Virus record (IMG/VR): IMGVR_UViG_3300017766_000977
Span: 1 to 29,835 of that record
Direction: 5' to 3' (one strand)
Source of the DNA: a virus
Taxonomy: Duplodnaviria; Caudoviricetes
Length of the DNA stretch: 29,835 nt
The translations under genes and the position numbers were made by a program. How positions within the stretch are numbered: the first letter of the stretch is position 1; every line of letters starts with the position of its first letter. The notes below the pieces were generated by a model, which saw nothing but the letters and a program-made list of their open reading frames with translations, was not told the origin of the DNA and made no database searches. Positions 7,096-16,779 of this stretch are shown here, one piece after another.

Positions 7096-7501
7096 ACAGT
7101 GTTTAGCAAAATTTGGTGAGCCGTCAGCATCTAATAAGTGTATGACACTTTGGGATGTGCCAACAGAATTGGAAATTGGGATCATACCTAAAAGAATATT
7201 TTGCAATCGTTTGATGGTTGAGCCACTTAAAAAAGCGTTTAAGAATCTTATTGATACTGGGGCGGTAAAAGAGCTTAAGACCTGGGATGGATGTTTTAAC
7301 ATTAGAAAAAAAAGAGGCCTATCAACTATGAGCTTACATTCTTGGGGATTGGCTATTGATGTAAACGCCTTTGAAAACGGATTATACCAAACGCCTAAAC
7401 TATCACCTACATTCGCCAAATGCTTTACTGACGCTGGGTTTGATTGGGGTGGTACCTGGCTTCGCTGCGATGCGATGCATTTTCAGTTATCCTCCATTTA
7501 A
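7082..7501 (+). CDS. Endolysin, M15 family Zn peptidase (L-Ala-D-Glu peptidase-like)
   Basis: SLHSWGLAID (H..D Zn ligands), WGGTW and DAMHFQ. Confidence 0.88.
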   Translation: MVSSKQCLAKFGEPSASNKCMTLWDVPTELEIGIIPKRIFCNRLMVEPLKKAFKNLIDTGAVKELKTWDGCFNIRKKRGLSTMSLHSWGLAIDVNAFENGLYQTPKLSPTFAKCFTDAGFDWGGTWLRCDAMHFQLSSI

Positions 7502-7520
7502 AAAATTTTATCATATTTAT

Positions 7521-7551
7521 TTTGTTTTTACAATTCTAAATAGTACCTTTG
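7521..7551 (+). promoter_or_regulatory. Host-type (Bacteroidota primary sigma) early promoter
   Basis: TTTG-N19-TACCTTTG matches the -33/-7 consensus TTTG...TAnnTTTG. Confidence 0.8.
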
Positions 7552-7561
7552 TACCATCAAT

Positions 7562-7795
7562 ATGAAAACAATAGAACTTTTTAGACTTGCCAAGAGATTT
7601 GAGCAACTCTACAGAATCAAGACACGCTTACCTATTGAGGCCGTTGGTAATGTGGTTACCATTTCAATGCACTATGAACACCTATTTGTATGGGCTTTAC
7701 AACAAAAGAAGCATTACAAATTTGAAATCATTATGGGTATGTTGGTTGCACAAAAAAAGTATGGGGATTCAATTTTAAAAATAAACCTATGGTAA
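7562..7795 (+). CDS. Early hypothetical protein
   Basis: 77 aa directly after an early promoter. Confidence 0.65.
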   Translation: MKTIELFRLAKRFEQLYRIKTRLPIEAVGNVVTISMHYEHLFVWALQQKKHYKFEIIMGMLVAQKKYGDSILKINLW

Positions 7796-8073
7796 TCACA
7801 GAACACTTGCCGAGCATTATGCAATACTCAGAAGACGATGTTATTGAGTTTATGAAACTTAAAAAAGGAGATTATCTTTTTTGGTGGAGTGAGTTTGGTG
7901 ATGGCCCTCGCTTTGTAAACAAGTTTGAGGAGATGCGTATGCGTAATGGCATCCCAATCATCTATTCACAGAAACAATATGGTGGCTTGGTTTGGGGTTA
8001 CCTTGGCCAATACAAAACAATCAAGAAAAATATGAACTATCCGCCAACTATGTTTTGGAAAATTACAAAATAA
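7789..8073 (+). CDS. Early hypothetical protein
   Basis: 94 aa, overlapping the upstream ORF. Confidence 0.65.
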   Translation: MVITEHLPSIMQYSEDDVIEFMKLKKGDYLFWWSEFGDGPRFVNKFEEMRMRNGIPIIYSQKQYGGLVWGYLGQYKTIKKNMNYPPTMFWKITK

Positions 8074-8085
8074 AATATAAATTCG
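8054..8085 (+). promoter_or_regulatory. Host-type promoter variant
   Basis: TTTG-N20-TAAATTCG; its spacer start (GAAAATTACAAAA) is nearly identical to that of the promoter at 9514. Confidence 0.55.
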
Positions 8086-8096
8086 CAATGTCAAAT

Positions 8097-8390
8097 ATGA
8101 AATACAACACAGATTTAGGGGTTGGGAATTACCCTACCTATCAAATGATTGAGAACCTTGACGGTATCATCAACATCGAACAATTTTTATTATCTAATCC
8201 AAGCTTTGATGCACAAACACTTTACCTTTATGTATACAAAGCTATCAGAGGCAAAATAGTGGAGTATTCTGGCGATAACCCAGAACCACTTTACAAAATG
8301 CTTATGATACTATTGGATGAGATTGAATGGGACATTATTATCAAACAAATAGAATATGGAAGAACAAACAATGCAAGTGGCCTTGAGTGA
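8097..8390 (+). CDS. Early hypothetical protein
   Basis: Same frame as the 7992-8390 track ORF; start is likely ATG 8097 (or 8088) given the promoter position. Confidence 0.6.
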   Translation: MKYNTDLGVGNYPTYQMIENLDGIINIEQFLLSNPSFDAQTLYLYVYKAIRGKIVEYSGDNPEPLYKMLMILLDEIEWDIIIKQIEYGRTNNASGLE

Positions 8391-8571
8391 GGTGTTTGCT
8401 AAAAGCAATGAGGAGTTAGCCGACGCAATGGGCATTAATTACAACACAATAGCAAGTTGGAGGTTTAACTTTCGCCACAACGCTATGAGCCAAGAAAAGA
8501 AAATCGAAATTTTAACAAGAATGAATTACACTTTAATTACAGAATCAAAATGGAAAAAACAAGCACAGTAA
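8356..8571 (+). CDS. Small HTH (Cro/XRE-like) DNA-binding protein
   Basis: SNEELADAMGINYNTIASWR fits a helix-turn-helix pattern. Confidence 0.65.
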   Translation: MEEQTMQVALSEVFAKSNEELADAMGINYNTIASWRFNFRHNAMSQEKKIEILTRMNYTLITESKWKKQAQ

Positions 8572-9032
8572 ACCACATCCAAGCCTCTGGGACTTGGGAA
8601 TCAAAGTACGGTACAATGTACAGATTTGAAATCGGCTTCACAAATGGTGATGTCGGAGACTACAACAGTAAGTCTAAAGACCAAACATCATTTAAATTGG
8701 GTGAAGAATCAACCTACGACATTACAAGCAAAGATGTCAATGGTAAATTATTCCATACCGTAAAGCCAGTCAAAGCACCTTTTGTGCCTTTCTCATCTAA
8801 ACCAAGCGATCCTGACAAGGACAAAAAGATTGCTCGTATGTCAGTCCTTAAATGCGTAACTGATTTAGTGGTAAGTGGCCATATCAAATTTGAAAGCTTA
8901 TTTGAACACGCCAAATACTTTGAAGCTTATGTTGAATCTGGAGTTAATCCTTACTTTGAAATGTTGGGCGAGAAGTTTGACTTAAAAGCAAAGAAGATAT
9001 CTAAAGACAATAGGGAAGATTTGCCATTTTAA
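8550..9032 (+). CDS. Probable single-stranded DNA-binding protein
   Basis: Beta-rich N-terminus and acidic C-terminal REDLPF tail. Confidence 0.6.
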   Translation: MEKTSTVNHIQASGTWESKYGTMYRFEIGFTNGDVGDYNSKSKDQTSFKLGEESTYDITSKDVNGKLFHTVKPVKAPFVPFSSKPSDPDKDKKIARMSVLKCVTDLVVSGHIKFESLFEHAKYFEAYVESGVNPYFEMLGEKFDLKAKKISKDNREDLPF

Positions 9033-9033
9033 T

Positions 9034-9462
9034 ATGCTAAAAAAGAAAATATCCCCTATAAGTGTATTGTCTGAATTGAGGATGATGCACAATGATGTCA
9101 ATTTAGGCTATTCAGAGCCTTTAGAATTGCTTATCGCACTTAAACAGATACAAGATACCATTGATAAGATTTCAAGCGATTTAAACGAAGATTTTTTAAA
9201 GTCTGCAAATCAGTACAATAAGCAAGAGTTTAATGGATATGTGGTGGAAGTTAGAACTGGAGGCGGGAGATACGAATACGACCATATTCCAGAATATGTT
9301 GAACTATCTGCCAGGCTTAAAGCTATCCAAGATGTTGCAAAACAGTCTTATAGGTTGTCATTAACAAACAACGGAATGATCAGCGAGGAGGGTGAAATAA
9401 TGATGTCTGCTAAATTTGTCCCTTATAAAGATTCGATTGTATTAAAGAAAAAGGGGCAATAG
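9034..9462 (+). CDS. Hypothetical protein (recombination/replication region)
   Basis: 142 aa, helical N-terminus, immediately after the SSB-like gene. Confidence 0.7.
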   Translation: MLKKKISPISVLSELRMMHNDVNLGYSEPLELLIALKQIQDTIDKISSDLNEDFLKSANQYNKQEFNGYVVEVRTGGGRYEYDHIPEYVELSARLKAIQDVAKQSYRLSLTNNGMISEEGEIMMSAKFVPYKDSIVLKKKGQ

Positions 9463-9513
9463 CCCCCTAATCCTGTCAGATATGAAAAAAGTATTGCGAA
9501 AATACTATTAATA

Positions 9514-9544
9514 TTTGGAAATTACAAAACAAACTTTATATTTG
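9514..9544 (+). promoter_or_regulatory. Host-type promoter for the replication operon
   Basis: TTTG-N19-TATATTTG. Confidence 0.82.
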
Positions 9545-9550
9545 CAATAG

Positions 9551-9661
9551 GATTCGCACCCCTAATCAGTATGAAACTAATTTTAAATAGAGCAATAGCA
9601 AGTAAAAGACTGGGTAATACTGAACCCGTGCGAAAGTCTTTGAAAGTTATTGCTCTTTTTT
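9551..9661 (+). ncRNA. Structured leader RNA or riboregulator (C4/CI-RNA-like architecture)
   Basis: Stems 9589-9599/9646-9656, 9605-9611/9635-9641 and 9612-9615/9624-9627, then a T-run. Loop and bulge are complementary to 9566-9572 and 9553-9559. Confidence 0.7.
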
Positions 9662-9669
9662 ATTTATGA
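9571..9669 (+). CDS. Leader peptide (32 aa, MKLILNRAIASKRLGNTEPVRKSLKVIALFYL)
   Basis: Open frame through the whole hairpin; its TGA overlaps the ATG at 9666 (ATGA coupling). Confidence 0.5.
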   Translation: MKLILNRAIASKRLGNTEPVRKSLKVIALFYL

Positions 9670-10151
9670 ATATTATTGAAAAAAATTTAGAAAACATTAT
9701 TCTAACAACACCAAATGAGGTGTTAAATCAAAAAGGGTTACCAATTTATGGTAAAAAGAAAAGCCAAGTTAATTTAGGTAGGTATGGTAGAGCTGATTTA
9801 ATTACATTTGAAAAATCATACGATTATTCTCATTTAGGTAATTTTACTCCAGCTTTACATATAACTATTTATGAATTAAAACAAAGAGAATTAGATTTAA
9901 ATACTTTTGGCCAAGTATCAAGTTATTTAAAAGGCCTTCAAAGATATTTAGATAAACGAGGTAAGTTTAAAAACTTTGAGATTAATTATGAAATTGTTTT
10001 AGTTGGTTATTCGGTAAAGAAAAACCCACAAATTTATTTTATAAATGATTTATTTATAAATGCAAATATTTATTTATATAATGTAGATATAAATGGGTTG
10101 TCTTTTGAATATTGGGATACAAATATTAAATATGAAAATGAGGGATTTTAA
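9666..10151 (+). CDS. PD-(D/E)XK family nuclease (NucS C-terminal/RecB-like motifs)
   Basis: GRADLI...IYELK...GQVSSYL fits D, ExK and QxxxY; the gene is conspicuously AT-rich. Confidence 0.72.
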   Translation: MNIIEKNLENIILTTPNEVLNQKGLPIYGKKKSQVNLGRYGRADLITFEKSYDYSHLGNFTPALHITIYELKQRELDLNTFGQVSSYLKGLQRYLDKRGKFKNFEINYEIVLVGYSVKKNPQIYFINDLFINANIYLYNVDINGLSFEYWDTNIKYENEGF

Positions 10152-10153
10152 TT

Positions 10154-10813
10154 ATGGCAAAAAGATTTACTGACACAACAAAATGGAATAAGCCCTTTAT
10201 AAGAGGCTTACAAGCACCTTACAAGCTCCTTTGGTTTTATATTTTAGATGATTGCGATCACGCAGGAATATGGCAAGTTGATGAGGATGTTGCTAAAATT
10301 AGAATTGGATGCGAAATTGATTTTAATGATGCAATAAAAATTTTCGGCAACCATATCCAGGTATTTGATGACGGTCAAAAATGGTTTATTAAGGATTTTA
10401 TAGATTTTCAATATGGAGAATTAAATCCTTTAAATAGAGTGCATTTATCAATTATATCAATTCATAAAAAATATAAAATTAAGCCCCTTACAAGCCCCTT
10501 GCAAGGTGCTAAGGATAAAGATAAAGATAAGGATATGGATAAAGAACAAGATAAAGATAAAGAAACTGTATTTAGTTTTGAAGAATTTTGGGAAGCTTAT
10601 CCAAATAAAGTTGCTAAAGAAAAATGTAAGGATAAATTTAAAAACCTTTCTGAAGAGAAAAGACAAAAAATTAAAGAAACAATTTTTACATTTGCAAAAT
10701 ACAAACCATTTGAAACTTATTCTCATCCGCATCCAATGACTTATCTAAATCAAGAAAGATGGGATGATGAGATTAAGCCTAAACAAGAATATAAAGAAAT
10801 AATCTGGGAATAA
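10154..10813 (+). CDS. Phage replication initiator (replisome organizer-like)
   Basis: N-terminal MAKRFTDT.KW...KLLWFYILDDCDHAGIW, DKDKDK linker, C-terminal FEEFWEAYPNK...P.TYLNQERWDDE. Confidence 0.8.
   Translation: MAKRFTDTTKWNKPFIRGLQAPYKLLWFYILDDCDHAGIWQVDEDVAKIRIGCEIDFNDAIKIFGNHIQVFDDGQKWFIKDFIDFQYGELNPLNRVHLSIISIHKKYKIKPLTSPLQGAKDKDKDKDMDKEQDKDKETVFSFEEFWEAYPNKVAKEKCKDKFKNLSEEKRQKIKETIFTFAKYKPFETYSHPHPMTYLNQERWDDEIKPKQEYKEIIWE
10190..10233. repeat. Four tandem 11-bp units (AAGnnnCTTAC-like), iteron candidates
   Basis: aagccctttat, aagaggcttac, aagcaccttac, aagctcctttg. Confidence 0.6.
10481..10563. repeat. 11-bp iteron-like units followed by a GATAAA hexamer array
   Basis: aagccccttac, aagccccttgc, aaggtgctaag, then (GATAAA/GATAAG)n; preceded by AT-rich 10441-10480. 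Confidence 0.65.
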
Positions 10814-10814
10814 T

Positions 10815-11471
10815 ATGTACATTAAAGACGCACAAAATAAAGAATTAGGCAAGATACTCGAGAATGTTTGTATGCTTGCCGACCTGGACATACCCAAATA
10901 TCCAGCAGAGATTGTTGAGTTTATCAAACAAAACTACGGCAAATACAATATCAATGTCATTAAGGATTCAATGGACAAATGGATTATGGGTATAATTGAT
11001 GTAAAGAAGCCAGAACGCTTAAATGCTCAATTTGTGGCAACAGTAATTTATAAGGCAATCAATAGTGGGTTGCTTGGCGAAATTGATATCCAAAAGCCAA
11101 TAGTAAAAAAGACTGAAAACTTTGTTAAGCTTACTCCAGAGGAGGAACGCCAAGGGTATGAAGATATGAGGAAGGTTTGGTATGAATATGAAGAGACTAA
11201 AAAATTTGATTCGTTTCCAATGTTTTTCAGCTCGAAATATGAGTTTATCCGCACATTTGATGATATGCAATATCCAGAGTTTGTACTTGAAATAATGATC
11301 AGCGAATTGAAACTGGCTTTGGAGGATAAGTACAAAAGAGACCAAACGAAAAATAACCCATTTATGACATTTATAAATAACTTCTCCTTGCCAAATATCA
11401 ATTGGAGAATGTTTGCTTGTGTTTGTTTACATTATAGAACTTGTTATGCCAACAGAAATATTCAGAGCTAA
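10815..11471 (+). CDS. Hypothetical protein (position typical of a helicase loader/adaptor)
   Basis: 218 aa right after the initiator; no Walker motif seen. Confidence 0.65.
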   Translation: MYIKDAQNKELGKILENVCMLADLDIPKYPAEIVEFIKQNYGKYNINVIKDSMDKWIMGIIDVKKPERLNAQFVATVIYKAINSGLLGEIDIQKPIVKKTENFVKLTPEEERQGYEDMRKVWYEYEETKKFDSFPMFFSSKYEFIRTFDDMQYPEFVLEIMISELKLALEDKYKRDQTKNNPFMTFINNFSLPNINWRMFACVCLHYRTCYANRNIQS

Positions 11472-11691
11472 TTTATTAGTCCAAACAGATAAAGGGCCAA
11501 AGTGGGTTAAAGATGTGGTATATAAACATACTGACGGGTATTTCCATCGCAAACGCTATTTTAAAGAACCAGTGAAGGTTTTACAAGTTGAAGTTATTAA
11601 AAGTTTGGGATTCAGTTTTGAAGGCTTGACGCATACTGAAGTACAGAAATCTGAAGAGATAAGAAATAATAAAACAGGATCTTATGAATAA
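11446..11691 (+). CDS. Hypothetical protein
   Basis: Likely start ATG 11446; overlaps both neighbours. Confidence 0.6.
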   Translation: MPTEIFRANLLVQTDKGPKWVKDVVYKHTDGYFHRKRYFKEPVKVLQVEVIKSLGFSFEGLTHTEVQKSEEIRNNKTGSYE

Positions 11692-12475
11692 CACAATAAA
11701 TATAATTAATTTTAGCGGAGGTAGAACATCTGCATATATGGCAAAAAGACTTATTGACGAAGGATTAAATGATTATATAGTTGTTTTTACTAATACAGGT
11801 AAAGAAATGCCACAAACATTAGACTTTATAAATGAATGCGACAAAAGATGGAATTTAAATTTAATATGGATAGAATATAGATATGGCAATAATTTTGAAG
11901 TTGTTAATTATGAATCAGCATCAAGGGATGGTCGGCCTTATTCTGAATTAATTGAATTTAGAAAAGGAGTTTTACCAACTAGTATGCGTAGATTTTGTAC
12001 GCACGAATTAAAAATTGATACATCAAGAAGGTATTTAAAGTCAATTGGTTTATCTGATTGGATTTATTATAATGGTATAAGATATGACGAGCCAAGAAGA
12101 TGGGGTAAAATGAAAAATTTGCCAAGTTATATTGATATTGAAATGCCCCTTGTTAAATGGAAAATAACAAAAAAAGATGTTTTAAACTTTTGGTCAAAAC
12201 AAGATTTTAATTTGATGTTAAATGAACCATATGGCAATTGCGACTGTTGTTTTTTAAAAGGCAAAGGTAAACTTGCTATTATAGCAAAAGAAAAACCAGA
12301 ACTTTTTGATTGGTGGATTGAAAAGGAAAACAATCAATTAGAAAAAAATAATAGAAAAACAGGTGGAATATTTAAACAGGATATTTCTTATAAACAGATC
12401 AGAGATAAGGCACAAAATCAAATTGGACTTTGGGATGATGATCCATCTTTTGAATGCTTTTGTAATGTAGATTGA
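11684..12475 (+). CDS. PAPS reductase family protein (adenine nucleotide alpha hydrolase fold)
   Basis: PP-loop-like NFSGGRTSA, FTNTGKE, RFCTHELK, GIRYDEPRR, GNCDCCFLK and terminal CFC. Confidence 0.85.
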   Translation: MNNTINIINFSGGRTSAYMAKRLIDEGLNDYIVVFTNTGKEMPQTLDFINECDKRWNLNLIWIEYRYGNNFEVVNYESASRDGRPYSELIEFRKGVLPTSMRRFCTHELKIDTSRRYLKSIGLSDWIYYNGIRYDEPRRWGKMKNLPSYIDIEMPLVKWKITKKDVLNFWSKQDFNLMLNEPYGNCDCCFLKGKGKLAIIAKEKPELFDWWIEKENNQLEKNNRKTGGIFKQDISYKQIRDKAQNQIGLWDDDPSFECFCNVD

Positions 12476-12507: not shown

Positions 12508-13503
12508 ATGGGGCAAATCAGCAAAAAAGGATTAATAGTCAGAGAGTATTTGGCTAAATATCCTCAATCATCCATTCGTACACTTGCACAGTTACTAATG
12601 GAGCACTATCCGACACTATTTACTAATTATAGTGCAGCTCGAACAATCTTAAGCCAACATTCAGGCAGATGGTCAAAGCTTAAAAACCCGATCAAAACAG
12701 AAAGGATACAATCAAGAGAGAATCCATTTGGCTTACCAGAATCAAGAGCCAATGTCCGCAAGTTTGTAAAGATTGAAGGGTCCACAAGAGTGCTTTGGCT
12801 TTCGGATATACACTTCCCAAACCAAGACAATGAAGCTTTAACGGCTGCTTTGCAGTTTGGATTAGATAATCAGATTGACTGTATCGTTTTAGGAGGTGAT
12901 ATATTGGACAATGAACCATTCACCAGCCACGATGCTCCCCCACCATTGTACTCCGAGATTCGCCAATGGTTTGAAATGGTTTCTGAATTTTTGGATATGC
13001 TTAATGACCGTTTCAAATGCCCGATACATTGGATCGAAGGCAATCACGACAACTGGTATAAGCGTTATTTAATGAAAAAAGCCCCAGCATTGTTTCACGA
13101 TGAGTATTACACGCTATCTTCAAGGCTTAAATTAAGAGAAAAAAACATAATCTGGCACGACCAAAATGTAATCTTGATGGCTGGTAAGCTTCCAATGACG
13201 CACGGCCATATGATTGTCAAAGGATTTTTTAGTCCAGTGAACCCAGCAAGAGGTGTATACAACCGTATTAAGTCATCAATGCTAATTGGGCATTGCCATA
13301 CCACATCTGAACACTCAGAAAGCATACTAAACCACGAGCTTTCAACCACTTATTCAACTGGATGCCTTTGCGAACTTGCCCCCGATTATGATCCGTTTAA
13401 TACCAAACATAACCAGGGCTTTGCAATGATTGAAATTAAAGAAAACGGAAACTACCGAGTACACAATAAGCGTATTGACTATTTTACTAAAGAAATATAC
13501 TAA
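12508..13503 (+). CDS. Calcineurin-like metallophosphoesterase with an N-terminal extension
   Basis: SDIH, GDILD, GNHD, THGH and GHCH motifs in canonical order. Confidence 0.88.
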   Translation: MGQISKKGLIVREYLAKYPQSSIRTLAQLLMEHYPTLFTNYSAARTILSQHSGRWSKLKNPIKTERIQSRENPFGLPESRANVRKFVKIEGSTRVLWLSDIHFPNQDNEALTAALQFGLDNQIDCIVLGGDILDNEPFTSHDAPPPLYSEIRQWFEMVSEFLDMLNDRFKCPIHWIEGNHDNWYKRYLMKKAPALFHDEYYTLSSRLKLREKNIIWHDQNVILMAGKLPMTHGHMIVKGFFSPVNPARGVYNRIKSSMLIGHCHTTSEHSESILNHELSTTYSTGCLCELAPDYDPFNTKHNQGFAMIEIKENGNYRVHNKRIDYFTKEIY

Positions 13504-15421: not shown

Positions 15422-15608
15422 CATAAGTTATTTATATGACCTTAATCCCGATCCAAAGAAATACTTTCGTGTTTGGCACGATGGTCTTATAGTTGGACAA
15501 TTTGAAAATAGACAAGATGCGGAACTTTTAAAAAATTATTATAATGAAATCAAAAATCAAACTTATTCCGATCAAGGAAATCAAAGAGAACCCAAACAAT
15601 CCTCGTAA
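15408..15608 (+). CDS. Hypothetical protein
   Basis: 66 aa filling the gap and overlapping both neighbours. Confidence 0.55.
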   Translation: MASISISYLYDLNPDPKKYFRVWHDGLIVGQFENRQDAELLKNYYNEIKNQTYSDQGNQREPKQSS

Positions 15609-16779
15609 GCTAGACAAGGATAAGTATCAAAAGCTTTTAAAATCTATTCAAGATTTACCACAAATGCTTGAATATAGGCCTATTGTGGTCAATTCGGATA
15701 TGGTTGTACTTGGCGGCAATATGAGACTAAAGGCATTAAAGGAATTGAAATACAAAGAAGTGCCTATTATTATAGCTGATGAGTTAAGCGAGGATCAGCA
15801 AAAGGAATTTTTGATTAAAGACAACCTTGGGTATGGGGTATGGGACTGGGATATGATTGCAAATGAATGGGATTTGCCTTTGCTTGAGGATTGGGGTATG
15901 GATTTGCCGACAGACTTTACAACTCAAGAAGAGTTAGAAGCCGTTGAAGATAATTTTGATGTACCAGATGAGGTTCAAACGGATATTGTACCTGGCGACT
16001 TATTTGAAATTGGTAAACATAGATTGTTATGTGGGGATTCAACTGACAGTGATGCAATAGCAAAATTAATGAATGGCAAAATAGCAAATTTATCATTTAC
16101 GAGTCCTCCATATAATGCAGGTAAAAGCGAAGCTTTGAGTGGGAATACACATACAACAGACAATAAATATAATGAATACAATGACAATCAAACTCAATCT
16201 GATTATTTAGACTTGCTTATTGGGTTTACAAATAATGCTTTAATGAACTCTGAATATTTAATTTGTAATATACAAAGTTTAGCAGGGAATAAAATAGCTT
16301 TGATTGAATATTTGTATCAATATAAAAATCAGTTTATAGATGTTGCAATCTGGGATAAAGGACACGGCGCTCCAGCAATGGCGGAGAATGTAATGACAAG
16401 CGCTTGGGAGTATATGTTTTTTATATCATCAAAAGAAAATGCGTCAAGAGCAATACCAAATGGTAATTTTAGAGGGACTGTGCCAAATATATATAGAGGT
16501 AAACCGCAACGCAACAATGAATTTTCAAATGTACACGCTGCAACATTCCCAATAGATTTACCAGAATGGGCATTGCAATTTACAACTGAAGGGGATATTA
16601 TACTTGATCAATTTTTGGGGACTGGGACTACAATGGTAGCTGCTCATCAAATGAAACGAAATTGCTATGGGATGGAACTTGATCCGAAATATTGCCAAGT
16701 AATAATTGACCGAATGATTAAACTTGATCCAAGCATTAAGATTACAAAGAACGGAAAACCATATGCGAAACCACACTAA
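15544..16779 (+). CDS. ParB-N domain fused to an N6-A/N4-C DNA methyltransferase (beta-class motif order)
   Basis: NPNNPR...RPIVV...GGNMRLKAL; then HRLLCGDS, catalytic TSPPY, H.ATFP, DQFLGTGTT and GMELDPKY. Confidence 0.9.
   Translation: MKSKIKLIPIKEIKENPNNPRKLDKDKYQKLLKSIQDLPQMLEYRPIVVNSDMVVLGGNMRLKALKELKYKEVPIIIADELSEDQQKEFLIKDNLGYGVWDWDMIANEWDLPLLEDWGMDLPTDFTTQEELEAVEDNFDVPDEVQTDIVPGDLFEIGKHRLLCGDSTDSDAIAKLMNGKIANLSFTSPPYNAGKSEALSGNTHTTDNKYNEYNDNQTQSDYLDLLIGFTNNALMNSEYLICNIQSLAGNKIALIEYLYQYKNQFIDVAIWDKGHGAPAMAENVMTSAWEYMFFISSKENASRAIPNGNFRGTVPNIYRGKPQRNNEFSNVHAATFPIDLPEWALQFTTEGDIILDQFLGTGTTMVAAHQMKRNCYGMELDPKYCQVIIDRMIKLDPSIKITKNGKPYAKPH

Follow-up and report, generated by a model that had tools for sequence, protein, structure and literature searches.

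The leader that precedes the replication genes of the phage described here is, on the evidence of its sequence, a member of a widespread and uncatalogued class of Bacteroidota-phage leaders in which a short 5' box and the loop of a downstream hairpin covary. It is likely that this element turns replication of the phage DNA on and off by means of RNA alone, in a strain-specific manner. The whole stretch of DNA analysed, 29,835 nt in length, is called the window, and positions given without a locus name refer to it.

Genome and probable host

The window amounts to a complete genome, circular and with a 123-nt direct terminal repeat (completeness class 100%), and this phage genome is present in freshwater (lake) sequencing runs. 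Genes for portal, terminase, tail and endolysin were found; a capsid-like ORF is split by the contig ends (29131-29835 and 1-340) and continues across the 123-nt terminal repeat. Other recognizable genes are one with a PAPS-reductase domain (11684-12475), a metallophosphoesterase gene (12508-13503) and one for a fusion of a ParB-like domain with a DNA methyltransferase (15544-16779). By pattern matching, the motif TTTG..TAnnTTTG, which we take to be the Bacteroidota-type promoter consensus, occurs seven times against 2.9 expected, and Flavobacterium phages are among the top terminase matches (38.5% identity). From these two observations we infer that the host is a member of the Bacteroidota. 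The N-terminal half of the replication initiator (10154-10510) has a 54.6% match to Pseudanabaena phage Pan5 (H36), the recorded host of which is cyanobacterial.

The first-pass annotation had described a phage without an integrase, and this is borne out for the window genome: a search for the tyrosine integrase family PF00589 was negative in the complete circular genome (0/1; control 14/14) and no integrase PHROG was matched among the 54 plus-strand ORFs scanned. The integrase-free setting does not extend to the class as a whole. An integrase was found in none of five initiator relatives (one of them complete) and in one of five other members; two of these five are proviruses (L367 and L374), and the integrase belongs to one of the two.

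Anatomy of the leader

A short G+C hairpin (9451-9468), called terminator-like on the minus strand, closes the upstream operon and appears to insulate the leader. A leftward promoter-like motif at 9497 (minus strand) overlaps the leader promoter region and faces this hairpin; together the two would yield a divergent RNA of about 45 nt. The leader promoter itself (9514-9544, plus strand) matches the Bacteroidota-type consensus, TTTG..TATATTTG, and places the predicted transcription start near 9549-9551. In the minimum free energy (MFE) folds it is followed by a weak 5' hairpin, H1 (9548-9564; stem 9548-9551/9561-9564), the loop of which holds box a (TTCGCAC, 9553-9559). Box b (TCAGTAT) lies just downstream at 9566-9572.

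The second hairpin, H2 (9589-9656, plus strand), comprises stems of 11, 7 and 4 bp (9589-9599/9646-9656, with one G-U pair at 9598-9647; 9605-9611/9635-9641; and 9612-9615/9624-9627) and has a predicted stability of about -25 kcal/mol. It carries both antisense segments: anti-box b (9617-9623) in the apical loop of 8 nt (9616-9623), and anti-box a (9628-9634) in a 3' bulge, each the exact reverse complement of its box. A U-rich tail, T6-A-T3 (9656-9665), stands directly 5' of the next ATG, and the -25 kcal/mol hairpin with this tail is predicted to be an intrinsic terminator. H2 was not called by a sigma-70 terminator scan; the base of its stem is A/U-rich.

Re-inspection of the sequence bore out every element and coordinate of the leader in the first-pass annotation. 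The UCAGUAU site does lie at the start of a small upstream ORF (uORF), with box b covering the AU of its AUG, and the targeting is indeed bipartite rather than a plain inverted repeat, the spacer between the boxes being unmatched in the hairpin. The folding z-score of the leader is -2.5, and the loop and bulge have an unpaired probability of 0.76-1.0 in the predicted fold of H2. When the 5' part was shuffled 20,000 times with dinucleotides preserved, 0.125% of the shuffles gave two separate 7-mer matches and 7.5% gave one. No promoter motif was found by motif search on the opposite strand between 9560 and 9860. Three other promoter leaders of the window (after 7551, 8085 and 17050) begin with (A)TCAA(A)TATG, which differs by a single mismatch from the sequence of box b and AUG; since other loop alleles do not match these leaders, a shared target is unlikely.

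Downstream genes and the exchangeable cassette

The leader is followed by a gene for a 161-amino acid protein (9666-10151, plus strand) without a Pfam or PHROG match and with three homologs. As a lead only, it may have a PD-(D/E)XK / NucS_C-like fold: its Atlas neighbours include proteins with NucS_C, below the naming threshold. Next comes the gene for a 219-amino acid replication initiation protein (10154-10813, plus strand), the C-terminal half of which matches phrog_270 (E=1e-12) and phrog_9474 (E=4e-10); a PDB search with this protein gave no match. The proposal of a nuclease-initiator operon holds insofar as the leader heads a replication operon, but the gene of nuclease-like type is a passenger that can be exchanged. 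In L014, L017, L120 and L132, too, a gene separates the leader from the initiator.

Leader and passenger gene form a cassette (9550-10141) which in a relative, L089, is replaced by a different leader of 85 nt. The initiator of L089 is 99% identical to that of the window and the promoter is the same up to 9549, after which a different leader stands directly before the initiator, without a passenger gene; L089 aligns to the window only at 7165-9549 and 10142-11456. The cassette junction at 9549 was seen in lake runs X3, X4, X5 and X7, and both the window type and the L089 type of cassette occur in X3, with different boxes behind one promoter. Run X16 has an insert of 596 letters at the cassette site; it is not counted as a third cassette, since it fits the size of an L001-type cassette.

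The predicted uORF is present as first described, 32 codons (9571-9669) running through the hairpin, with an ATGA overlap with the ATG at 9666. The ATGA overlap stands for the window, but it is not fixed: in the close relative L001 the uORF encodes 36 amino acids and its stop is shifted, and most class members lack the uORF. In X3 a 1-nt deletion shifts the frame of the uORF of the L089-type leader. Among initiator lineages (16 hand-picked leaders, less two unparsed and three dropped as non-independent, giving 11) an ORF runs through the hairpin in seven, against 1.9 expected, and its stop lies within 4 nt of the ATG in five, against 0.32 expected. There was no enrichment in the two unbiased samples described below, where such an ORF was present in 3/23 leaders of the first and in 4/26 positives versus 10/41 negatives of the second. 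By these sequence counts the uORF is a lineage add-on and not the core of the element. In hairpin H1 of two leaders (L188:735-835 and L199:735-837) an ATG-TAG start-stop pair lies at the 5' edge of the box.

Covariation of box and loop

The first-pass annotation had suggested a search of homologous loci for conserved pairing between the boxes and the loop and bulge. Such pairing is conserved, with covariation, in L001, in the lake contigs, in the leader of L089 and in the L188 family. L001 is 93% identical to the window, with a 98% identical initiator and an unchanged promoter. It differs from the window at 11 positions between 9514 and 9656, eight of which fall within the boxes and anti-boxes (28 bases) and make up four two-sided pairs (two of them in box a), while the other three lie outside the stem pairs. 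Two-sided changes therefore affect 4/14 box:loop/bulge pairs versus 0/22 stem pairs (Fisher p=0.017), in a comparison of two sequences for which the shuffle control is weak (40/500).

Further alleles were read by eye from tables of differences between lake contigs and the window. In X3 record 6 changes at 9569 and 9570 are accompanied by changes at 9620 and 9619, and box a is kept. Both boxes have changed together with bulge and loop in X4 record 11, each still matched 7/7; its stem shows two-sided changes at 9595/9650, 9605/9641 and 9606/9640 and has lost one pair. X3 record 8 has a fourth allele of box b, with a loop match of 7/7, and one mismatch in box a. X3 record 7 was left out, as 7 of its 21 differences are absent from the table. 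Box b thus occurs as four alleles, and in every case the loop of the same leader matches at 7/7 positions; among the X3 and X4 contigs boxes a and b reassort, and the H2 stem of the lake contigs has compensatory and G-U changes.

The replacement leader in L089 has its box, GGTCAAG, in the 7-nt loop of a 5' hairpin, and this matches CTTGACC in the terminator loop. One change in this box was first seen at the end of a contig match in X3; the change that it required in the partner loop was predicted before L089 was compared with X3, and was then found. The differences listed are the predicted pair of substitutions (2415 A>G and 2468 T>C) and the 1-nt deletion, a third difference being absent from the list. 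Among the four related leaders of the L188 family, which were chosen for having a match, 6/7 box pairs show two-sided changes, 28/28 cells are paired, and 0/500 shuffles reach the score. The L003 family, though missed by the initiator-leader filter, contributes one compensated change.

The stems have changed at 0/44 positions, versus 42/239 at fourfold (silent) sites (p=0.0008). The boxes changed at 8/28 positions, a rate not significantly above that of the fourfold sites (p=0.20), which gives no support for diversifying selection on them. That the pairing of boxes and anti-boxes is functional we regard as nearly certain.

Recurrence among phages

In 43 of 164 initiator loci a promoter motif lies less than 60 nt from the ATG, which leaves no room for such a leader, and these were set aside. 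A large initiator clade (roughly half of L022-L080, together with many of L134-L170) has its promoter some 30 nt before the ATG and no leader. Non-redundant initiator leaders with a terminator have a perfect match of at least 7 nt in 8/11 cases, against 0.5 expected from cross-pairing.

Two samples of viral loci were drawn without bias, by promoter and GGGYTTTTT terminator only, patterns estimated to occur in about 1,600 and 1,300 viral stretches. They contained 120 and 121 loci, 107 each after the redundancy filter and 76 each once a hairpin was required. A box/loop match of at least 7 nt was found in 23/76 (2.1 expected) and 26/76 (4.1 expected), or 49/152 against about 6 in total. All 23/23 positives of the first sample have their box in the loop of a 5' hairpin and their anti-box at the apex of the terminator. 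Leaders with two boxes number seven against 1.8 expected, and L307, L346 and L378 repeat the layout of the window without a uORF. The 49 boxes have 46 distinct cores. The order promoter, box, hairpin, U-run, ATG is fixed, an ORF following within 30 nt in 20/23 positives versus 21/97 other loci; the genes behind 20 positives include initiators and ParB-like, Erf and HNH/GIY-YIG proteins. Like the passenger gene of the window, a gene resembling HNH or GIY-YIG homing endonucleases stands directly behind the leader in L290, L295 and L192.

A pattern search of cell genomes matched 35/401, control matches being similar in number by eye, and a box match of at least 6 nt was present in 0/16 of the cellular loci (p=0.009). 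A motif search for promoters on the opposite strand was positive in 0/23 and 1/25 class members (1/48 positives versus 7/137 others). The YUNR motif occurs in 14/49 boxes and 14/49 anti-boxes, without bias. The sequence of the anti-box loop is UUGCCG or UUGGCG in L090:165-323 and the L003 family; UUGGCG is also the loop motif named in the title of a paper on ColIb-P9, possibly by coincidence. Pattern searches of viral contigs with the stem returned six loci, of which only L083 (on the same contig as L001) was genuine, and with the box region four loci, all of which lacked the architecture. When the leader and three others of the class were compared with named phages by blastn there was no full match, hence no cultured member was found. 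A literature search, conducted mostly outside subscription journals, found no description of the class.

A model for control of the initiator

Pairing of boxes and anti-boxes crosses the terminator stem. In prefix folds of the window this pairing is the MFE structure from 9624 to 9651 (-18.3 kcal/mol), the terminator not replacing it until 9654; it is also the MFE structure over the same stretch in L001 and, more briefly, in L089. With the boxes blocked in folding, H2 forms directly. It had been proposed that pairing in cis favours termination. Because the pairing is incompatible with the terminator stem that it crosses, and has the lowest energy of all folds up to about 9651, anti-termination is the more likely outcome according to the folding model, and pairing in trans would then be the OFF signal. 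At equilibrium the terminator lies below the cis fold by about 6-7 kcal/mol, so the ON state would depend on kinetics. The nested folding model cannot represent kissing, and cofolding gave no trans duplex, as expected from such a model.

Our preferred reading is that the leader may be a self-silencing attenuator, ON when the boxes pair in cis and OFF when the short leader RNA acts in trans; on present modelling its chances are evenly balanced. It starts from the complementarity, covariation, position and recurrence across phages. As the RNA emerges, loop and bulge are predicted to pair in cis with the boxes and to trap the 5' arm of the terminator, so that the first transcripts after infection would read through. 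Some transcripts would end near 9660-9665, and an RNA of about 110 nt, or a trimmed hairpin of about 70 nt, would accumulate. The loop and bulge of this short RNA could then seize the boxes of nascent leaders, with loss of the cis anti-terminator and covering of the uORF AUG; the hairpin would form, transcription would stop and the downstream start would stay blocked. OFF would in this manner act at both termination and uORF initiation. Synthesis of the initiator would be capped and co-infecting phages with the same boxes silenced, which, we propose, would reward lock-step changes of box and loop and the swapping of cassettes. In the lineage of the window a second ON input would come from a ribosome on the uORF. 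Action in trans is favoured by box sites that change at silent-site rates while the stems are frozen, by the diversity of cores and by the swapped cassettes; against it, the short RNA contains the boxes as well as the anti-boxes, and might therefore be self-silencing.

Targets elsewhere were also sought. Box a occurs once in the window and box b does not recur near the leader, and a duplex scan of the window gave no target beyond chance-level matches. Across 16 loci, with L317, L331 (likely chance) and loci of less than 4 kb dropped, the scan for second targets matched one promoter (0.8 expected) and one start region (0.47 expected), the promoter match being the opposite strand of the leader itself. 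A third box at the start codon was not found among the class members examined, nor did the predicted folds contain an RNase P-type fold, a processing site or a tRNA-like fold. Run X20 was set aside as evidence of expression, being flagged as probably DNA.

A purely cis switch, in which the box:anti-box structure is a co-transcriptional anti-terminator or a kissing fold that sets the read-through ratio, the uORF ribosome or a phage protein toggles it, and the short RNA is a by-product, we consider unlikely, yet deserving of serious weight. It fits the covariation and folding data equally well and accords with the lack of a target outside the leader, with a box change rate not above that of silent sites, with the frequent uORF and closely placed stop in the initiator lineages, and with a linker long enough for cis kissing in 17/23 leaders (it is too short in 6/23). 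A structural pair should nevertheless change as slowly as the stems, whereas the boxes change at silent-site rates and only two-sidedly; moreover, with the uORF missing from most class members no common toggle is visible, and a single run contains two leaders that share a promoter but differ in their boxes. Cis pairing might also be the OFF state, the intact hairpin forming a pseudoknot with the boxes, so that the uORF AUG is hidden and termination stabilised. In its favour, the hairpin leaves loop and bulge unpaired, the AUG is covered by box b, the 16-nt linker could span the 22-bp hairpin, and the hairpin is the final MFE structure. What makes this improbable is the order of synthesis, the anti-boxes being made before the 3' arm of the terminator and box pairing coming first in the prefix folds; in addition the stem would presumably need to wind through a closed ring, and in many members an AUG at the box is lacking.

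Two further explanations rank lower still. Activation of the IsrK kind, with the short RNA binding the long message in trans and turning translation on, has a precedent in IsrK itself, a short terminated RNA that acts on its own read-through message via an upstream ORF (PMC4825925, in part). It is nonetheless very improbable here, for binding of the anti-boxes would cover the uORF AUG instead of freeing it, and blocked boxes let the terminator form. A DNA-level feature, be it a cruciform, an origin element or a quasi-palindrome matched by template switching, which can copy changes across the arms of an inverted repeat, would suit inverted repeats that adjoin an initiator gene. It is scarcely credible in view of stems that hold or gain G-U pairs specific to the plus strand (9598-9647; changes at 9606 and 9597; seven one-sided pairs in the L188 family), a box spacer that is unmatched, and the fixed order of promoter, box, hairpin, U-run and ATG.

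Implications

About a third of the leaders with a Bacteroidota-type promoter and GGGYTTTTT in the two samples carry the pairing, and Rfam has no entry for it. If the trans model is true, it would account for the way in which circular phages of this phylum that lack an integrase limit their replication and exclude close kin, and the 7-nt code could be read to predict which phages can co-infect. More broadly, and tentatively, since we lean somewhat against it, Bacteroidota phages may widely use a switch for immunity and replication that needs no protein, in which the repressor is the terminated leader, its loop kisses a 7-nt 5' box that serves as a fast-changing address code, and cassette swaps behind one promoter create mutually compatible immunity groups in one lake phage population, with neither repressor, integrase nor counter-transcript. 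The window, L001 and L089 form natural pairs of cognate and non-cognate alleles for the cis-versus-trans question. Such leaders, if they work as proposed, would also be small orthogonal RNA switches for Bacteroidota, for which to our knowledge few RNA switch parts exist.

Relation to known systems

The first-pass annotation had likened the leader to the CI RNA of phage P4 and the C4 RNA of P1 and P7. P4 CI RNA recognizes its target by loop plus bulge, while C4 controls an antirepressor operon and has a second copy of its target, a2-b2, downstream. The common feature is that two short unpaired antisense segments match a split upstream target in the same transcript. These RNAs are the closest working analogues, but the leader fails membership, having neither the three-stem fold nor a downstream target, and it precedes an initiator rather than an antirepressor operon. 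There was no Rfam match at gathering score in the window or in 15 class loci. The search for C4-like families was likewise negative: among the 13 weak matches listed (E<=10), a list that omits two overlapping same-clan matches, none is C4 or isrK, and the weak Plastid-psbA matches reflect the outer stem alone.

In P4 the CI/seqA system brings about early termination, which translation of eta prevents (PMC10111431, in part). The leader resembles it in having an upstream target (seqA in P4), antisense segments in the same transcript and predicted early termination ahead of replication genes, as well as a constitutive promoter and, in the window and most initiator lineages rather than across the class, an ORF through the RNA, translation of which prevents termination in P4 (PMC10111431 and PMC4825925, excerpts). 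It differs in lacking a downstream seqC-like copy, the best downstream match being 4 nt in 23/23 members; its antisense hairpin is itself the predicted terminator and its promoter is of the Bacteroidota type.

C4 is described as three stem-loops, with loops a' and b', that are cut by RNase P (PMC5320573, in part), whereas the window has one long interrupted hairpin with a U-tail. Like C4 (RF01695), the leader has two short antisense segments on one RNA, one of them covering a start region, and few paired changes separate the window from L001, as the 4-nt change that sets specificity separates P1 from P7 (PMC5320573, in part). C4 is given for Proteobacteria only in a table of PMC2864571, and bioRxiv 10.64898/2026.09.22.753630, in the portion available, concerns other elements.

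With IsrK of Gifsy-1 (isrK-orf45-anrP) the leader would share one promoter that gives a short terminated RNA and a read-through message, and possibly translational coupling through an upstream ORF (PMC4825925, in part). IsrK is an activator that pairs over about 30 nt with a downstream region, unlike the window, where the boxes are upstream and 7 nt long and one of them holds the start of the uORF. The I-complex plasmids (the repZ pseudoknot and RNAI of ColIb-P9) and pT181 rely on a counter-transcript from an opposite promoter, a motif absent from the window and found in a single class member. They nevertheless resemble the leader as modelled here in the control of a replication initiator by kissing loops (PMC10724649, in part) and, going by the title of a reference, in cis pairing that is ON and is competed by an RNA in trans; in the I-complex plasmids a few loop changes set incompatibility (PMC10724649, in part).
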